This document shows positions 2-53,793 of a DNA stretch of 64,000 nucleotides, one piece after another (position 1 is the first letter of the stretch; the number at the start of each line of letters is the position of its first letter). The notes beneath the pieces are model-generated. The model made no database searches. It had not been told where the DNA came from and saw only the letters and a list, made by a program, of their open reading frames with translations. The translations under genes and the position numbers were made by a program. This stretch comes from a phage: assembly GCA_020773975.1 (NCBI GenBank), contig GCA_020773975.1_3638.1; one strand, given 5' to 3'.

Positions 2-1528
2 TTGGGCGACGGAATGCCTGATTTCAATAATGAGAAATTGACCCCGACATTAACCCTTAAACTTTTAGATGGGGCGACCCATTATATCCCTCTGTACGCT
101 TATGCTGAAAATATCAGCGAGGATTATAAAAGAGCCACAATCAAACTTGATTTTTCAAATTTAAAATCTGGCCCTGATGTGAACGTGCCAGTGGATACCT
201 CTCAAGTGGATCAGTTTTTCTTTTCTATGATATCTGAGAAGTATGCAGAAGGAGAAGATGTTGTCCCTAAAGAAAATCAGAACCTTATGTTGAAAATAAC
301 TCTTAAAAAGCCTGATACAGGCTATACAATGATGAGAGTTAATAATTTGACAATTCCTGCACATGATGTGCGTATGTGTACATCCTATGATGACATGTAT
401 AACCTGACACCTGAACGAGTGGTGGACAACTGCTTGAAACTTGGGTACAGGGATATGATAAACCACTATAATGGTATGTCGCATTATTACGAGTTCTCTT
501 GGGAAAGCTCTGCATGGAAACTGAACAAAGATGTCCCTGTCAATAATGCAACTCTACAATGGATGAAAAACTATTTCGCACTGACACAAGCAAATGGTTA
601 TAAGGTTATCAATTCTATTAGTTTTGAGTTGATGAGTACTGTATGTCCGGCAGAATGGGTGCAGCATGATTGGAATGATGCATTGGCTGAAACAGGATAC
701 ACACCACCAAGTTGGGTATTATCACCTAATATTAATGAGGGTATGCAATATATCCAAAGTGTGATAAATAAAATAGCAGCCACATGCGAACAAGTTAACC
801 AGGTTGTTATCATTCAGATAGGGGAGCCTTGGTGGTGGTATAATACTGCTACAAATTTACCTTGTGTCTATGATTATACTACAAAAGTTCGTTTTAATGA
901 AGAGACTGGATTGTATGCTCAAGACATGGGAACAATTTATGACTTTAAGACCGGAACACCCTATGATGAGTATGTAGATTTTCTAAGACAGTGCTTAGGG
1001 GAGCGAGTGGTAAAATTCGGTGCTGATCTTAAAAAATCTTATCCTAATGCAAAAATAACACTTTTACCGTTTTTACCATCCATTATTGGTAATGGTATTA
1101 TGGAAAAGATAAATTTCCCTAGTGGTAGTTATACACCTGAGAATTTTGATTTTTATTGCTCCGAGTGCTATGACTGGTTACTTCAAGGAAAAATGGAAAA
1201 ATCATTCCAGGCCATCACCATTCCGCGAGATGTCTTAAAATTTAAAGAAGATAAGATACATTATCTGGCAGGATTTGTTCCAGACGAAGGGCTAGCACCA
1301 TTATACGGATTTGACCCTAATTCTAATTATAGAGAATATCTTTGGAAAATGATTATAGGGAACATCGTTCTTAATGAGTTTAAGTTTCCAGGTATTTATC
1401 AATACATATGGGCGTATCCACAAGTAATGCATGATTCTATAACAGTGCACAACTCTCAATCCGCAGTCTTTCATATGGGGCATACAGCATTGAAAGGGTA
1501 TTTAAAAGATACCCCACCAGAAGTTTAA
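2..1528 (+). CDS. tail-associated structural protein, C-terminal part (5' end outside window)
   Basis: Long ORF open at window start, immediately upstream of tail-fibre genes; no catalytic motif recognised. Confidence 0.45.
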   Translation: MGDGMPDFNNEKLTPTLTLKLLDGATHYIPLYAYAENISEDYKRATIKLDFSNLKSGPDVNVPVDTSQVDQFFFSMISEKYAEGEDVVPKENQNLMLKITLKKPDTGYTMMRVNNLTIPAHDVRMCTSYDDMYNLTPERVVDNCLKLGYRDMINHYNGMSHYYEFSWESSAWKLNKDVPVNNATLQWMKNYFALTQANGYKVINSISFELMSTVCPAEWVQHDWNDALAETGYTPPSWVLSPNINEGMQYIQSVINKIAATCEQVNQVVIIQIGEPWWWYNTATNLPCVYDYTTKVRFNEETGLYAQDMGTIYDFKTGTPYDEYVDFLRQCLGERVVKFGADLKKSYPNAKITLLPFLPSIIGNGIMEKINFPSGSYTPENFDFYCSECYDWLLQGKMEKSFQAITIPRDVLKFKEDKIHYLAGFVPDEGLAPLYGFDPNSNYREYLWKMIIGNIVLNEFKFPGIYQYIWAYPQVMHDSITVHNSQSAVFHMGHTALKGYLKDTPPEV

Positions 1529-6098: not shown

Positions 6099-6731
6099 GT
6101 GGCCTTTGTTTTAGGAGGTTTAATGTATCCAATTCCTTGTTTCTATAATACAATTATTAACAAGATAGCGGCACAATCCATAACTTTACAACCTATAGGT
6201 ATTGCATTAAAAGGTAGTTCTAAAAAGCTGGCGTATGCGGTTTCCCCCGAAGGGGCTGATATATATGATATAACTTTTGAAGCTAATACGCCGGATTCGG
6301 TCTCTGTTAATAAAGATGGGGAAATATCCTTTATTTCAGAAGGTTACTTCAGTATATTAATGACAGCAAAGACAGTTGGAGATATAACTTTATCCGATGT
6401 TATAATTGGAAATGTAGAAGAGTTGAGATTGGACGTTGACCCTATAGGAAATAGACCAATCGGGGACAGGTTCTGGTTTGTCTATAGAGGCGATCCTTCT
6501 TTTGATCCTGGCAACCCATCCCCTAATATGGTTGGTTTTGATGTATTCCCGCCAAAGATCATGGAAGAAGATGACTTCTTTGTCTATGGGTTTGCAGAAA
6601 CACCTAACATCATAAGCATGGCTCCTAGCGGGATATTTACATGCATATCCTCTGGTGAGGCACAATGTGGATTAAAAGGTACATACAAAGATGTTTCTGC
6701 CACCCACAAAGAAACAGTAACGGTGGTTTAA
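6099..6731 (+). CDS. Ig-like (BIG2-type) domain protein, probable fibre-associated
   Basis: BIG2-like segment YAVSPEGADIYDITFEANTPDSVSVNKDGEISF. Confidence 0.4.
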   Translation: MAFVLGGLMYPIPCFYNTIINKIAAQSITLQPIGIALKGSSKKLAYAVSPEGADIYDITFEANTPDSVSVNKDGEISFISEGYFSILMTAKTVGDITLSDVIIGNVEELRLDVDPIGNRPIGDRFWFVYRGDPSFDPGNPSPNMVGFDVFPPKIMEEDDFFVYGFAETPNIISMAPSGIFTCISSGEAQCGLKGTYKDVSATHKETVTVV

Positions 6732-6883
6732 TAAAGCTCTTTTATAATTTTGTAGGACATCACTTATTTTTACAAGTAAATATTTATTACAAATAATCCA
6801 CACTTTATAGGAGTATGTAATTATCATAAGATCGCCACTGTTGTATAAATCCCTAATAAACACCTAGACTTTAATCAAAAAAT

Positions 6884-39299: not shown

Positions 39300-39354
39300 A
39301 ATTTAACCACACAGGGAGGCTAACGCACGTAGTCTCCCATATGTCCCCATTTCA

Positions 39355-39378
39355 GGGACATGGGTATGTCCCTGTTTT
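39355..39378 (+). terminator. rho-independent terminator within a cluster of overlapping GGGACAT/ATGTCCC hairpins (39341-39385)
   Basis: GGGACAT-gggt-ATGTCCC followed by TGTTTTG. Confidence 0.55.
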
Positions 39379-49322: not shown

Positions 49323-49724
49323 ATGAATACTTACAAAACTGTTTTTAATTTCGACAACTTCAAAGCTATCTGTGACGATCAGATCGGTAAGTGCCGTAAA
49401 GAAAAAGGATTCTATAAATCTTATAAATTGATTGCGGTTGTTGATGAAGAGATCACCGAAGTGGCAACGCTCAACCTGTACCACACCAACGCTACTAATT
49501 ACGCTTGCCTGTGGATGCACTGGACCAATATTAAAGGTTGGGATCATGGCTATGTTGGCGGGAAAGCAAGCGGATACGGTTACGACAGGGAGGAGGCCGC
49601 GATCCATGTCGTAGCTAATAAGCTCGGTATTACTGGCAACTGGTTTAAAGGTGAGCAATTGCTAGATGCGATGGCACGCCATTTTGATATGAAAGGCGCA
49701 AAGGTTATAACTTGCAACGCGTGA
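49323..49724 (+). CDS. early-region hypothetical protein
   Basis: RBS AAGAGGTAAAT. Confidence 0.5.
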   Translation: MNTYKTVFNFDNFKAICDDQIGKCRKEKGFYKSYKLIAVVDEEITEVATLNLYHTNATNYACLWMHWTNIKGWDHGYVGGKASGYGYDREEAAIHVVANKLGITGNWFKGEQLLDAMARHFDMKGAKVITCNA

Positions 49725-49771
49725 TCATTCAATAGCGGGGAATATTCCCCGCTTATAGATAGGGCATAATC

Positions 49772-50023
49772 ATGATTTACGATCTTAAATATTACGACGA
49801 ATTGAGCATTACAGCACAATTAACCGCCCGTGTCAATATTATAGCAGACCTTGAGAATCACCACAGAAAGCGCATAGTCCAGACTATCGCAAGTTTTAAA
49901 AATAATCCTCATAAAGTGATTAATGACACGAAGCACATTCAACGCCTCAGAAACGGCGCAAAGGCGCTTTATAGTGTACAAGTTTTAACGAGATCGCCCC
50001 GCGTTTTGACTGGTCGAGCTTAA
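49772..50023 (+). CDS. early-region hypothetical protein
   Basis: ORF after hairpin AGCGGGGA-atat-TCCCCGCT. Confidence 0.4.
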   Translation: MIYDLKYYDELSITAQLTARVNIIADLENHHRKRIVQTIASFKNNPHKVINDTKHIQRLRNGAKALYSVQVLTRSPRVLTGRA

Positions 50024-50098
50024 AAACAATAGTTTAAAATTAATTTAGTTATTGATAAAATCTTATATAAAACTTTAATCTAAAAGGGGTGAATTAAT

Positions 50099-50299
50099 AT
50101 GAAACGTTTTACCTATGGTGTTGTTGGTGGTTATGTTTCAAACCGGTTTTACAATACCGAGCGTGGTGCTAAAAATGCGGCTACCCGTGGATATGGCAAT
50201 AGTGCAAATTTACAAGTTGGCTACATTAGCAAAATTAGCGGTATGTTTATTCCGGTTGCTCAACGCGGCATGTATTGCATAAACTGGATGCCAATGTAA
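50099..50299 (+). CDS. early-region hypothetical protein
   Basis: Leader identical to that of the gene at 44249. Confidence 0.45.
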   Translation: MKRFTYGVVGGYVSNRFYNTERGAKNAATRGYGNSANLQVGYISKISGMFIPVAQRGMYCINWMPM

Positions 50300-50314
50300 A
50301 AAGGAGTAATAAAA

Positions 50315-50506
50315 ATGGATGTATCACAAGTTAGAAAGGTATTAGCAGCGTTACGCTATCACAATTATAGCAAGGTGAAGAATGATCCTGATTATGTTGA
50401 TTCCAGCTTGGAGGAAGACACCTTGCAAGCTATAAGCCATATGCAGGAATTGCTTAAGCGTATGACAGAGAAGAACAGATCTGATTATATAGGTGAAGAG
50501 ATTTAA
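50315..50506 (+). CDS. early-region hypothetical protein
   Basis: RBS AAAGGAGTAAT. Confidence 0.45.
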   Translation: MDVSQVRKVLAALRYHNYSKVKNDPDYVDSSLEEDTLQAISHMQELLKRMTEKNRSDYIGEEI

Positions 50507-50540
50507 TCTCTTACAACCGCACAAAGTAAAATTGTACAAG

Positions 50541-50567
50541 GGGCGCATTAAGCGCCCTTTATTTTTG
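50541..50567 (+). terminator. rho-independent terminator closing the early block
   Basis: GGGCGC-attaa-GCGCCC followed by TTTATTTTTG. Confidence 0.65.
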
Positions 50568-50951
50568 CCCTAACAAGCATGATAAGTTTTATCTATCAAA
50601 ACACCACACAGAAAAAAGTGAATAAAACGCGGTATCGAGCTAAACGAGGGTAGGCAGTACAACGGCAAGGGTAAACAATTAAGGCCGTTATAACGCGATT
50701 TAGGCCGCTTAAAATCGATCCCCATCACGAACAACCCCCATAATCTGACCAAAACGACACAACATGACTTAAATGATAACCATTCTCAACAACATAAGAA
50801 TTTTTATGCAATTTTAGTGAATATCTATTTAAATGATAATGACTCTCAACAACAAAATAACACGACCGAAGCGATTTAATCGCCTATCACAAAACAAATC
50901 AATTGTAAAGAACAATTTAAAAGCTGCGTAAGTGGCGCGACCGTAGGGAGC

Positions 50952-51177
50952 GACACAATAACGCAGTAGTAACCCCTCCCCCTCACTCCTTACAGTCGCC
51001 CGGTATCGGGATAGCGTTATTATGTCGCTACGCGCCAACGCGTTAACAATTTTGCAAAGAAGCCTGCTTTGCAGGTTAAGCGCATTGCGCTTAATCGCGT
51101 AGCGACTATGTGAAATTATAACAGTTAAATTATTAATAAAATCTTGCAAAATTGTTAACCTACTGCGTTATTGTGTC
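50952..51177. repeat. nested inverted-repeat locus (three different perfect IR pairs)
   Basis: 18-bp pair 50952-50969 / 51160-51177; 11-bp pair 51024-51034 / 51096-51106; 16-bp pair 51042-51057 / 51144-51159; central hairpins. Confidence 0.7.
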
Positions 51178-52047
51178 CTGTATATAATTCGTTAAATTAA
51201 CCAAATTAATCCCCGATTATTACGCAGTAAATCACCTGCTTTTAACCCTGTTAATGTGCCACGTAGTGATCTGCTATCTTGCCCAGGGATAACCGCATGG
51301 CATGCGGTTAAATGCTGTTAAGTGCTTGAAATGCCAGATCAATTTGGTCACTGCGTGATTATGATTGCGACAATAATTTGCTATTTATTTGTTATAATTT
51401 GTTATAATTTGTTAAACACTCTTTTATCTTTTCTCTTACATTTTCGTTATATTTGATTTGTTATCGTTTTCCCTCATTTCGCTTCGTTATTGAAAACAAG
51501 AATTATTATCATTGATACGCCTTAACAGGCTGGCGGGTCTGTTAGTGGTCTGGCTCTCTGTGTGGTCATGTTGTTATTGGTTGTGATAGCTTGGTTTTAT
51601 TGTCTGGCCTGTTATTGTTAGCTTGCTTATTGTTGTGTGGTGTATGTATTAGTTAGCTAGTACATTAGCTGGTGCGCATAACGTGTATTATGTTAAATCA
51701 GGTGGCCCACAAGTAAGGTGGCTTGTCAATAACAATAAGTGCTATGTGCGGTAGTCTGGCCCATCAGTGTGCCCCTTTGTTGTGTGGTGCTCTCAGTGTG
51801 TGACCTGTCTGCTGTGTGCGCTGCGCCAAATCTCGAGCGGTTCTCGATCACAATAGCTGTAGGATATTTTCAAAACATCCGAATTTCCATCGACACCCCC
51901 AGCTCATCTGCCTGTCACCTCTGAGATAAAGCTGTAGATATTTTCACTCCTCACATCATGCACAAGTTAATACATGCAAGTCTTTACAGACAGGGGTGGG
52001 TGGTGTAAAATACCTGTGCCAACAGTACAAAACACAGAGGAGGTTTA

Positions 52048-53508
52048 GTGGCAAAACAGTTCTTTGACAAACATTACATGGAAACGCATTTTGTAGAGAA
52101 ACCTCTGCATCGCCTGAACTTTACAGATTTAGAAGGAATGAGGTTTGGCAAGATAACGGTGCACAAACTTAACAGAAGAGAGGATAAGTCTTTTGTGTGG
52201 TGGTGTACGTGTGATTGTAACCCATCCAGATATTTTATGGTTGTGCCTTACTCACTTAAAACAGGGGTGACAACATCTTGTGGTTGCAATTATAAAACTA
52301 ATGGAGGGAATATACATGAAACACTCCAAGAGTTTCAAAAGAAAGTTGGTGGTGATTGGGAGATTATCTCATACCAAGGTAGAAAGCACGATTGTGTTGC
52401 CAAATGTACTATGTGTGGGAGTATTGTCACCAAACAAGGTGGCTCATTTATCTGCGGTGTGACGTGCCATTGCACTGATAAAAGAATAAAGAGGCGTGAT
52501 GATATTTTGCATCTTGCGGGGTACAGTCTGATCAAAGAAGAGAAAGTTCAACAGCAGAATGGTGAATATATAATGCACTTGCGCTGTAAATCTTGTGGTG
52601 TTAAGAAACTGACGCGAAACACGGAGTTAAGGGATTTAAAGCCATGCCTGTGTAGAGGCGACCACACCAACAATGGGAAACCTTGCGCCATTTACCTGCT
52701 TTCACATAAAGATGGTAAGTATTGTAAGATTGGTAGGTCTTATAGCCCCTCCTCAAGATTACGTATGATTAATGGTTCTGGTGGCGACTTTATATTGGAG
52801 CATGTTTGGTGGACACCTAACTATCACTACGCATCTGTGCTGGAGACAACACTCCACAGGGAATTTTCTGAGCATCGCTTTGACGCTGGTGGTTTCGATG
52901 GGAGCACAGAGTGTTTCTACATAAAGCCTGACAAATTGGCAAAAGGAATATCTGAGATAGTCGCCAAGTTGGTTGGGGATTACAAACCTGAAGATGGGGT
53001 GTTGACAAAAGATGTGAAGATAAGGAATAACTACAAGAACAGCGGTATGATTGTGAAGTCTAGGAGTTATCACTTCAAAGAGTCAGATGTGTGTTTGTGG
53101 ATACCTTATAAAGGGTATCTCAGAAAGAAGAGATCCCCATTCTCCTCTTGGGAGATGGCAGAAGAGTGTCACTATTTAGCTGCAAATGTGCAGCCTTCCA
53201 AAAACTTAGATAGGTTTAAAATTTATGATGTGGATGGGGTTACTGACTCCATAGCAGGTTGGTCAAGGAGAACTGGAATCCCTGCTCAGACACTTACGTG
53301 GAGAATGCAACGCACAGGCATGACAATGAAAGAGGCGATTAATTATTGCAGACCAGACACTGTTATTTGGTGTGGCGGGAAAATGGTTAAGAAGAGAGAT
53401 CTTAAAAGCATTATCGGTGTTTCTTGGGAGTCGGTTTATACAGCATCCAGAAAAAGCAAGAAGTCCCCAGAACATATTATAGAAGAAATACTGAAAAGGG
53501 CCACTTAA
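52048..53508 (+). CDS. free-standing GIY-YIG/T5orf172-like homing endonuclease-like protein
   Basis: GTG start with RBS AGAGGAGG; Cys-rich N-terminal repeats; AIYLLSHKDGKYCKIGRS; C-terminal HTH-like IAGWSRRTGIPAQTLTWRMQ. Confidence 0.5.
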   Translation: MAKQFFDKHYMETHFVEKPLHRLNFTDLEGMRFGKITVHKLNRREDKSFVWWCTCDCNPSRYFMVVPYSLKTGVTTSCGCNYKTNGGNIHETLQEFQKKVGGDWEIISYQGRKHDCVAKCTMCGSIVTKQGGSFICGVTCHCTDKRIKRRDDILHLAGYSLIKEEKVQQQNGEYIMHLRCKSCGVKKLTRNTELRDLKPCLCRGDHTNNGKPCAIYLLSHKDGKYCKIGRSYSPSSRLRMINGSGGDFILEHVWWTPNYHYASVLETTLHREFSEHRFDAGGFDGSTECFYIKPDKLAKGISEIVAKLVGDYKPEDGVLTKDVKIRNNYKNSGMIVKSRSYHFKESDVCLWIPYKGYLRKKRSPFSSWEMAEECHYLAANVQPSKNLDRFKIYDVDGVTDSIAGWSRRTGIPAQTLTWRMQRTGMTMKEAINYCRPDTVIWCGGKMVKKRDLKSIIGVSWESVYTASRKSKKSPEHIIEEILKRAT

Positions 53509-53541: not shown

Positions 53542-53793
53542 TTACCATTGACCAGGTAAACCAATATCAAGGCCAAATTCGTGACACTCATCCCAGTCAA
53601 GACTTTGATTCCAGTTTGTAACTGTCCTCTCTGTGTGGTGGGTGTATGATGCTCTCCGTGACTGCTTTGGCATCTTTTTTGTCTGAGATTTCCCGAAAAG
53701 AGGTGTGTTGTCATTGAGTCTTCCGGCAGCCTTTTCACCCTTTTTGACTTGTCTCCCACGGGCATTCCACTGCTCCAGTGTCCTGTAACACAT
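53542..53793 (-). CDS. small basic protein
   Basis: RBS AGGAGAAT before ATG; Lys/Arg-rich. Confidence 0.35.
   Translation of the reverse strand: MCYRTLEQWNARGRQVKKGEKAAGRLNDNTPLFGKSQTKKMPKQSRRASYTHHTERTVTNWNQSLDWDECHEFGLDIGLPGQW

Follow-up and report, generated by a model that had tools for sequence, protein, structure and literature searches.

The phage KPP-1 (MT438396), a Mydovirus of the subfamily Vequintavirinae, has a 514-bp direct terminal repeat (DTR) at 116,316-116,829 of its genome, identified by twofold read coverage and PhageTerm (PMC9862379), and this repeat sits in a gap of about 1.8 kb between convergent gene blocks. The record of a second Mydovirus, Klebsiella phage DP (OP296941), is linear and carries an identical 514-bp repeat_region at both ends; record starts match the KPP-1 boundaries, that of phage KP12 exactly at one and that of DP at the other. 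Among the Stephanstirmvirinae, a 342-bp DTR was found with PhageTerm in the phi92-like phage BME3 (PMC12210895), and a 328-bp terminal repeat has been reported in a phAPEC8-like phage (PMC6563267). Here we describe a non-coding locus of about 1.5 kb, at positions 50568-52047 of a 64,000-nucleotide stretch of phage DNA (contig GCA_020773975.1_3638.1; hereafter the 64-kb window, or simply the window). We consider it probable, with a chance of roughly three in four, that this locus holds the physical ends of the phage chromosome, which the assembly shows as a collapsed concatemer junction with a single copy of a DTR.

A terminus of the short-DTR type is already documented in the subfamily, and by homology one can now be mapped in an Avunavirus-like phage as well. 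Two details are modestly new, namely a palindrome whose arms covary and a dyad motif at the repeat boundaries. Since terminal repeats with adjacent repeats and palindromes are to be expected in such phages, we regard the finding as useful rather than surprising.

The predicted terminal repeat and its boundaries

High-identity matches to the locus were returned by Avunavirus-like coliphages alone, that is, by Av-05 (86-91% identity) and by TH18 and three partial TH18-like records (about 85%); judged from these matches, the source is an Avunavirus-like coliphage of the Vequintavirinae. The equivalent region is also gene-free in Av-05 and in TH18-type genomes. A rightward block of small genes lies to the left of the locus and a leftward block to its right, so transcription converges on it. 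One of the KPP-1 blocks that flank the DTR gap holds a homolog of the window gene at 53545-53793.

In sensitive BLAST searches, window positions 50579-50973 aligned with the DNA beside the KPP-1/DP repeat (61% identity, E 5e-15), and positions 51638-51743 aligned inside the 514-bp repeat itself (69%, E 5e-9). The two matches are collinear in KPP-1/DP, and the convergent-block topology corresponds likewise. DP runs in the same orientation as the window. When the boundaries of DP and KPP-1 were projected onto the window, a DTR of 498 bp was predicted here, and projected lengths of 453-499 bp were obtained for Av-05, TH18 and two metagenome relatives. In an alignment of five Avunavirus-like sequences, positions 51414-51903 form a conserved block, save for one indel zone at 51563-51612, and the zones that flank this block have 80-100% gapped columns, at 51380-51413 (the tandem 10-mers) and at 51903-51918. 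A conserved block between gap-rich zones provides independent support for the projected DTR. An earlier reading made from the sequence alone had offered a packaging site or genome terminus as one of four candidates, with no preference among them; homology and synteny with defined DTRs speak for that candidate, and its alternatives of a replication origin, a mobile-element remnant or a structured RNA found no such support.

The right boundary (51912|51913) reads ...GATATTTTCAAAACATCCGAATTTCCATCGACACCCCCAGCTCATCTGCC|TGTCACC in the window and ...GATATTTTGTAAAGATCCGTAAAAATAGTTGACGCCCGGAGCTGTCCGTC|TAGCACC in DP or, in shorter form, ...GACACCCCCAGCTCATCTGCC|TGTCACC and ...GACGCCCGGAGCTGTCCGTC|TAGCACC. 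Its predicted position is well supported and probably good to a few nucleotides. A direct repeat straddles it, and the inner copy (GATATTTTGTAAAGAT...) is kept as far as DP and KPP-1. At the left boundary (51414|51415), DP has GTGTGTTA|AACACGATTC and the window AATTTGTTA|AACACTCTTT, with the motif GTTA|AACAC in common. Confidence in this boundary is lower, since no alignment with DP can be made over the first half of the DTR, which is also skewed in the opposite direction. The MAFFT alignment to DP slipped by about 25 columns at this point, and the placement therefore rests on the 9-mer, on the distance to the conserved central block and on the conservation profile.

Both boundaries of KPP-1 and DP carry the motif GTY|TARCA, facing outwards on opposite strands. 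On the left it is found in Av-05, TH18 and the metagenome contig L027, in which the right boundary reads GYC|TAACC, and a second metagenome contig, L025, has GTT|AAGCA on the left. The window has GTT|TAACA at its left boundary. We infer that such a dyad may be a requirement of a single nuclease that cuts opposite strands at the two boundaries. The tandem 10-mers that abut the left boundary are hypervariable in copy number and sequence among the relatives, with 80-84% of alignment columns gapped. They had been described, from the sequence alone, as an 11-nt unit present twice; a tandem repeat does exist there, but TRF favours a unit of 10 nt and about four copies.

A self-similarity search found no second copy of the locus elsewhere in the 64-kb window, which thus holds one collapsed copy only. 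The Av-05 record is circular and the TH18 record starts elsewhere, neither with annotated termini in this region. Three metagenome contigs (L025-L027) all run through the junction, as is expected for a collapsed repeat, and they are consequently uninformative about the ends. A search of IMG/VR for closer relatives with contigs ending at the predicted boundaries yielded Av-05 alone.

The predicted DTR covers the G+T-rich stretch that the sequence-only reading had pointed out. That stretch is indeed exceptional, since its peak of 0.677 at 51351-51650 is the G+T maximum among all 300-nt windows of the 64 kb (mean 0.496, standard deviation 0.039). The left flank at 50601-51000 has a G+T content of 0.36 and is among the most A+C-rich DNA of the window, and the base skew flips sign at around 51000-51200. 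The k-mers TGTGTGGT and TGTTGTGT are about ten-fold enriched in the locus and switch strand at the palindrome described below, lying on the plus strand to its right, with three copies of TGTGTGGT inside the predicted DTR, and on the minus strand to its left, which gives the mirror-image A+C/G+T skew. This strand-switch pattern is not kept in the Mydoviruses. Local G+T richness is not conserved in them either, and we therefore assign no general function to the G+T-rich stretch. A possible Chi site in the predicted DTR, GCTGGTGC (7/8), was dropped because the relatives of this phage lack it.

Conserved element, boxes and palindrome beside the predicted right end

The terminator that forms the left edge of the non-coding region is kept in Av-05, TH18 and the metagenome relatives L025 and L027, and it has a counterpart in phi92-like phages and Mydoviruses. 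It is followed by an element of about 110-160 nt that is approximately 80% identical across some 100 phi92-like/phAPEC8-like records and still recognisable in Mydoviruses. In BME3 and DP, too, this element lies between the gene block and the DTR. A consensus RNA fold of the element from seven phages was weak (-6.6 kcal/mol), with almost no covariation. Some T5-like phages have part of it (50628-50711) as well, in their pre-early first-step-transfer region and next to an HNH endonuclease gene. In all these phages the element is within a few kb of a genome end.

Palindromic boxes of the GATAA-N3-TTATC type are concentrated in the locus, which holds four of the 13 matches in the window within 2.3% of its sequence. 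DP and KPP-1 have similar boxes at most 50 nt from their left DTR boundary. BME3 has one precisely at that boundary, its repeat opening with GCAAATGATAATCATTATC, which is identical to the E. coli Fur consensus at 16 consecutive positions. Fur-box-like palindromes cluster in the terminus regions of three phage groups. The box GATTATGATTGCGAC, which in this phage belongs to a nearly invariant block of the spacer, has similar counterparts in DP and KPP-1, 20-47 nt ahead of the DTR boundary, and in BME3, where the counterpart is at the boundary itself. The two boxed direct repeats are nearly invariant in Av-05 and TH18 and are candidate protein-binding boxes; they had been described as a 34-bp imperfect repeat, which is present but measures 32 nt. 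A minus-strand promoter-like site overlaps them and is not conserved in TH18. When sites of the GATAATGATAATCATTATC type with at least 13 of 19 matches to the Fur consensus were counted, 7 of the 36 hits in the window (4 sites) fell in the locus, and the window as a whole was not enriched over shuffles. The best match in this locus is 14/19, compared with 16-17/19 in the relatives, and for this reason we make no claim for Fur. A terminase subunit, or a host protein such as Fur, might dock at these boxes.

Farther to the right is a large nested palindrome, 237 bp inside the predicted right genome end; in KPP-1 the corresponding distance from the repeat boundary is about 310 bp. Its 18-nt outer arms carry the core GCGACACAATAAC, and an inverted repeat with this core and an interior of 137-190 nt is found at the equivalent position, between the gene block and the terminal repeat, in KPP-1, DP, other Mydoviruses and Seunavirus 4MG. 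The outer stem, of 18-21 bp, is kept across Avuna-, Mydo- and Seunavirus, and the inner ends of its arms vary by lineage. All five variants of these ends are perfectly complementary (GCAGTAG/CTACTGC, ACGAGAG/CTCTCGT, ACGGGAG/CTCCCGT, ACTAGGG/CCCTAGT and ACGAGGG/CCCTCGT). In the Mydoviruses the palindrome contains a nested inner repeat, GTTATCGTGGC/GCCACGATAAC, and small hairpins, with a fold z of -9.6, and in all phages folded the palindrome was more stable than its shuffles (z -7.2 to -9.6). For the window, positions 50940-51190 folded as single-stranded DNA with z = -7.2, and the longest perfect inverted repeat of the locus, at 18 nt, compares with a maximum of 14 nt in 300 dinucleotide shuffles; taken together, the repeats exceed chance. 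In the phi92-like BME3 an analogous 15-nt perfect repeat, GCTAATAATAACGCA/TGCGTTATTATTAGC, lies between the DTR and the shared conserved element. From this comparison, the palindrome is a conserved part of the DNA next to the predicted right end, its sequence being kept in the outer stem alone. The complementarity of the arms could be due to selection for a hairpin or cruciform, to a symmetric binding protein, or to gene conversion between the arms.

What lies between the outer arms behaves quite differently. An 86-bp core, enclosed by 16-bp inverted repeats, is reversed in Av-05. Positions 51042-51159 of the window match the reverse strand of Av-05 at 98.3% over 118 nt, above the 92-94% identity of the flanks, both of which match in the forward direction. 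A first BLAST search had matched two places per record; the second of these was the inverted core and not another copy of the locus. The window alone has its orientation of the core, which is reversed in all five relatives. TH18 still has the A+T-rich half of the core between the arms, and the 52-nt half with the two hairpins lies some 270 nt to the right, just before the conserved block; in L025 to L027 the A+T-rich half is retained and the rest lost. After the right arm, the relatives carry two to four additional units that consist of AAATTGTGTC plus a short hairpin, and this phage has none. We take sporadic recombination between short inverted repeats, and not a programmed switch, to have inverted the core. 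The sequence-only reading had also remarked that the 11-nt and 16-nt inverted repeats cross and, if transcribed, would form a pseudoknot. The crossing is real in this sequence, but the pairing of the 11-nt arms is lost in every relative; being peculiar to one sequence, the pseudoknot idea fails.

Table 1. Features of the locus and corresponding positions in related phages. Positions are those of the window unless another record is named.
Feature	Position	Strand	Remarks
Intrinsic terminator	50538-50567	+	Terminator scan; closes the rightward small-gene block, left edge of the non-coding region
Conserved non-coding (post-terminator) element	50568-50730		Opens with GATAA-N3-TTATC box at 50579-50595; contains block GCGGTATCGAGCTAA
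Post-terminator element, other copies	T5-like FFH_1 (L028) 1501-1582; BME3 record 1358-1466		
Fur-box-like palindromes	50579-50595, 50773-50789, 50833-50849, 51496-51512		Also DP junction 1718-1742 and BME3 DTR start
k-mers TGTGTGGT/TGTTGTGT	51559, 51634, 51781	+	
k-mers TGTGTGGT/TGTTGTGT	50610, 50764	-	
Boxed direct repeats	50769-50860		Each copy a Fur-box-like palindrome of AATGATAA-N3-TTCTCA type
Direct repeat, 32 nt, 84% identical	50769-50800 / 50829-50860		60 nt apart
Large nested palindrome	50949-51177		Arms GACACAATAACGCAGTAG (50952-50969) and CTACTGCGTTATTGTGTC (51160-51177); third near-copy 51014-51029
Perfect inverted repeat, 18 nt	50952-50969 / 51160-51177		
Perfect inverted repeat, 11 nt	51024-51034 / 51096-51106		
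Perfect inverted repeat, 16 nt	51042-51057 / 51144-51159		
16-bp inverted repeats around 86-bp core	51042-51159		Core: two small hairpins and an A+T-rich half
86-bp core	51058-51143; Av-05 (L001) 6490-6575		
52-nt two-hairpin half in TH18	TH18 (L002) 6797-6848		GTCGCTACGCG, then TTAAGCGC..GCGCTTAA, then CCTGCAAAGCAGG
Spacer, palindrome to array	51178-51372		51178-51329 hypervariable (site of AAATTGTGTC units; includes palindrome 51290-51310)
Palindrome	51290-51310		
Invariant block in spacer	51330-51379		94% invariant (conservation profile); contains box GATTATGATTGCGAC
Tandem 10-mers ATAATTTGTT x4.1	51373-51414		TRF; end exactly at the predicted left DTR boundary
Predicted DTR, 498 bp	51415-51912		One collapsed copy; positions projected by homology
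Direct repeat straddling predicted right boundary	AGCTGTAGGATATTTTCA 51855-51872; AGCTGTAGATATTTTCA 51930-51946	+	
Boundary motifs, KPP-1			GTT|TAGCA and GTC|TAGCA
Boundary motifs, DP			GTT|TAACA and GTC|TAGCA
Boundary motifs, Av-05			GTT|TAACA and GTC|TAACC
T5orf172/MUG113 (GIY-YIG-like) homing-endonuclease-type gene, 486 amino acids	52048-53508	+	Pfam and PHROG matches

A repeat search of the locus recovered every repeat listed in the sequence-only reading, and the two flanks it named, a terminator upstream and an endonuclease-type gene downstream, were confirmed. Its statement that there is no credible open reading frame (ORF) between them also holds, as four ORFs in the locus gave zero matches in a PHROG search and all of them, the longest being of 106 amino acids (50829-51149, minus strand), overlap DNA that is inverted, deleted or non-homologous in close relatives. 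A scan of the window for tRNA and tmRNA genes found none. Scans for sigma-70 promoters and terminators gave counts no higher than in shuffles, and nothing stood out except the upstream terminator and a promoter-like site, TTTACA-17-TAAAAT at 51983-52011, upstream of the endonuclease-type gene.

Between the predicted DTR and the start of the endonuclease-type gene there are 135 bp. Among the phages compared the gene is peculiar to this one; Av-05, TH18 and the three metagenome relatives lack it, position 51930 being joined to 53541 in them, and its absence from all of these points to a recent insertion outside the terminus module. Collinearity of the window with Av-05 breaks once, at 39334-39362, where Av-05 position 102,827 is joined directly to 13,595. 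At that position the window thus lacks about 31.7 kb of the Av-05 record, a stretch annotated with capsid, split terminase and several T4-like genes, among them rI, DenV and thymidine kinase. The junction reflects a rearrangement or else a faulty assembly of one of the two sequences.

Proposed mechanism and competing readings

If the locus is a collapsed terminus, its single DTR copy would be present at the junction and the same sequence would lie at both ends of virion DNA. The approximately 850 bp to the left of the DTR, with the terminator, the element, the boxed repeats, the palindrome and the 10-mers, would be unique DNA inside the right end, and the DNA to the right of 51912 would lie just inside the left end, the endonuclease-type gene following after its short spacer. 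Terminases of T7-type phages cut at the boundaries of the repeat after recognising signals next to it, and duplication of the junction copy then provides every packaged genome with a repeat at each end. By analogy with such phages, replication would produce head-to-tail concatemers with one DTR copy per junction. Terminase would recognise signals adjacent to the DTR, for which boxes of the GATAA-N3-TTATC and GCAAATGATAAT types are candidates, and would cut at both boundaries, where the relatives have outward-facing GTY|TARCA motifs on opposite strands. The single DTR copy would then be duplicated to provide one for each daughter genome, and the palindrome, 237-310 bp inside the right end, may play a part in this processing at the level of DNA, either by extruding a hairpin or cruciform or by offering a protein a symmetric site to bind. 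We infer the fixed ends at the projected positions, and every one of these mechanistic roles, from the comparison with mapped phages.

More tentatively, and with the odds against it, we suggest that the palindrome as a hairpin or cruciform primes or guides duplication of the DTR during concatemer processing, with nicks at GTY|TARCA and with the GATAA-N3-TTATC boxes as docking sites for terminase or Fur. On this view, the processing of hairpins or cruciforms would incidentally have left the 86-bp core in both orientations. For T7, PMC4281155 cites work on an intermediate at the terminal repeat that contains a hairpin. If our suggestion is correct, the 'hairpin intermediate' model of T7 would apply to many more phages, a large group of myoviruses with short DTRs. 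Further details of the T7 intermediate were reportedly given by Chung, Nardone and Hinkle in 1990.

The terminase gene is not in the 64-kb window, and the comparison was made with the Av-05 protein. The end segments of the Av-05 terminase large subunit ORF are 72-77% identical to the proteins of Mydovirus KpS8 and Seunavirus 4MG, the matched part being about 35% of the 376-amino-acid query, and this similarity would favour a packaging mode shared with Mydovirus and Seunavirus. The 'terminase large subunit' of Av-05 (L011 267-1397) matches Vequintavirinae terminases in its two end segments and not in its middle; the gene is annotated in three pieces, which suggests an interruption by an intein or a homing endonuclease.

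Several observations weigh against a terminus of this kind. The ends are projected from Mydoviruses with which the DTR has 48% identity, or 61-69% in the segments that align significantly. The left boundary depends on a 9-nt motif, its position and the conservation profile, next to a DTR half that does not align with DP and has the opposite base skew, and at the right boundary the GCC|TGTCA of the window departs from GTY|TARCA. Both the spacer and the inside of the palindrome change readily, as is seen from an inversion, a relocated module and the loss of hairpin units in this phage, so that much of that DNA appears to be dispensable. Gene conversion, and not selection for a hairpin, could be what keeps the arms complementary. 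Moreover, rV5, the founding member of the Vequintavirinae, was published as circularly permuted (PMC3606486), and one recent Vequintavirus was called headful by PhageTerm (PMC13211470), so packaging mode may vary within the subfamily.

It is unlikely, in our view, that the locus is instead a bidirectional replication origin, with the palindrome as an initiation or unwinding site and the mirror-image skew as a trace of divergent replication or priming. The change of skew sign around 51000-51200 would fit an origin, as would the strand switch of TGTGTGGT and TTGTGTC at the palindrome and the resemblance of the A+T-rich tandem 10-mers to a DNA-unwinding element or iterons, and no origin is known for rV5-like phages (PMC3606486). 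However, the skew is local, extending over a few hundred bp, and is not conserved, the homologous DTR half in DP and KPP-1 being skewed oppositely. DnaA-box-like sites are not enriched (five with one mismatch, where about 2.7 are expected, and zero perfect), and the 10-mers, the sole tandem array, are hypervariable in length and sequence. Origins are usually situated where gene blocks diverge, and here the blocks converge; positional homology to mapped DTRs accounts for the locus without an origin. The secondary origin phiOR of T7 adjoins the right terminal repeat, which indicates that origin and terminus can coexist; an origin may be a co-resident function here, though one with no positive support.

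Less probable still is a programmed DNA switch, in which a site-specific recombinase would invert the 86-bp core and so toggle a genome-end function. Perfect inverted repeats flank the core, and its opposite orientations in the window and Av-05 go with an identity higher than that of the flanks; both points speak for a switch. Against this, the complete Av-05 record has zero invertase or integrase annotations, and no recombinase domain was found among the neighbouring window ORFs tested. The window is alone in its orientation, with five relatives sharing the other, and the deletions and the relocated 52-nt module in the same region fit sporadic recombination between short repeats.

We give even less credence to a large structured non-coding RNA in which the 18-, 11- and 16-nt repeats would form nested and crossing helices, the crossing pair as a pseudoknot. 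The locus is gene-free, the predicted fold of 50940-51190 is very stable, and the outer helix shows compensatory changes across genera. Yet a strong terminator precedes the locus, promoter-like sites are no commoner than in shuffles, and a scan of 49500-53000 on both strands found no Rfam match at E <= 1. The geometry of the crossing repeats and the core is also unconserved, since the inversion in Av-05 turns the second 11-nt arm into a direct repeat of the first. The core is split or shortened in TH18, L025 and L027, different genera have unrelated sequences inside the palindrome, and the outermost helix alone is conserved. If the core of an inverted repeat can be flipped in this way, a role at the level of DNA is indicated. 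Least credible of all is a functionless remnant of a miniature inverted-repeat transposable element or insertion sequence, or of homing-endonuclease traffic, to which the terminal inverted repeats (the left copy interrupted), the adjoining endonuclease-type gene and the relocating hairpin modules might lend themselves, because the locus is single-copy in the 64-kb window, and a search of 5,426 complete E. coli genomes gave one 50-nt chance-level match but no homolog. Moreover, several genera have conserved the locus in synteny, whether or not the endonuclease gene is present, and its arms stay perfect through sequence change, which is not the mark of decay.

Comparison with known systems

If the locus is indeed a terminus, a DTR of about 0.5 kb gives the genus a natural genome start and explains an 'empty' region of 1.5-2 kb. 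The location of the ends matters in practice, since phage engineering and rebooting need intact ends. To our knowledge, the cutting of concatemers and the regeneration of repeats in short-DTR myoviruses are poorly understood outside T7, and the conserved element, the boxes, the covarying palindrome and the dyad motif would provide mutable candidate signals for both processes.

The hairpin units recall the PeSL mobile cassettes of T4-type phages, promoter plus stem-loop modules that are said to mediate shuffling (Arbiol et al., reportedly in 2010). Like these, the units beside the palindrome are short hairpin modules, bounded by AAATTGTGTC..., whose number, order and orientation vary between close relatives. 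Unlike them, they have no evident promoter consensus and are found in a gene-free terminus region, not between early genes.

The phi92-like and phAPEC8-like phages of the Stephanstirmvirinae (BME3, Schickermooser), with DTRs of 328-342 bp, share with this phage the post-terminator element at about 80% identity. In BME3 the order is also the same, from the element through an inverted repeat with a AATAACGCA core to the DTR, with GATAATGATTATCATTTGC-type boxes at or near the DTR boundary. The sequence of the DTR and the boundary motifs are unrelated, however, and the genes that flank the gap in those phages run in one direction. When the end of the BME3 record (PP239276) was joined to its start (L010+L009), 19-mers internal to the DTR occurred three times, with spacings of 861 and 342 nt, and the record thus seems to hold the 342-bp repeat more than once around an artificial junction.

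The T7 junction has a 160-bp terminal repeat, flanking arrays of short repeats and, on the side of the right end, a hairpin-forming inverted repeat and the phiOR promoter; Dunn and Studier are said to have described its details in 1983. The locus described here resembles it in having a short terminal repeat, abutting repeat arrays and an inverted repeat capable of forming a hairpin a few hundred bp inside the right end, and in having one repeat copy per junction that would need duplication. It differs in that there is no sequence homology, that the phage is a large myovirus whose terminase belongs to another lineage and which has no pause site for a phage RNA polymerase, and that the genes beside both ends are transcribed towards the ends; the role of the palindrome here is, moreover, a proposed one.

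With the Mydovirus termini of KPP-1 and DP, the resemblance is one of homology. Their DTRs are of similar size to ours but have only 48% identity with it, the first half being unalignable and of opposite skew, and the interiors of the palindromes are unrelated. Unlike the Mydoviruses, this phage has tandem 10-mers where the DTR begins on the left and, past its right boundary, a homing-endonuclease gene; its ends are predicted. Nevertheless, the loci are collinear, and both boundary sequences are recognisably related. All have, in the same order, the terminator, the conserved element, the boxed palindromic motifs, the GCGACACAATAAC inverted repeat, a spacer of 237-310 bp, the DTR (498 bp here and 514 bp in the Mydoviruses), a short spacer and the leftward gene block.

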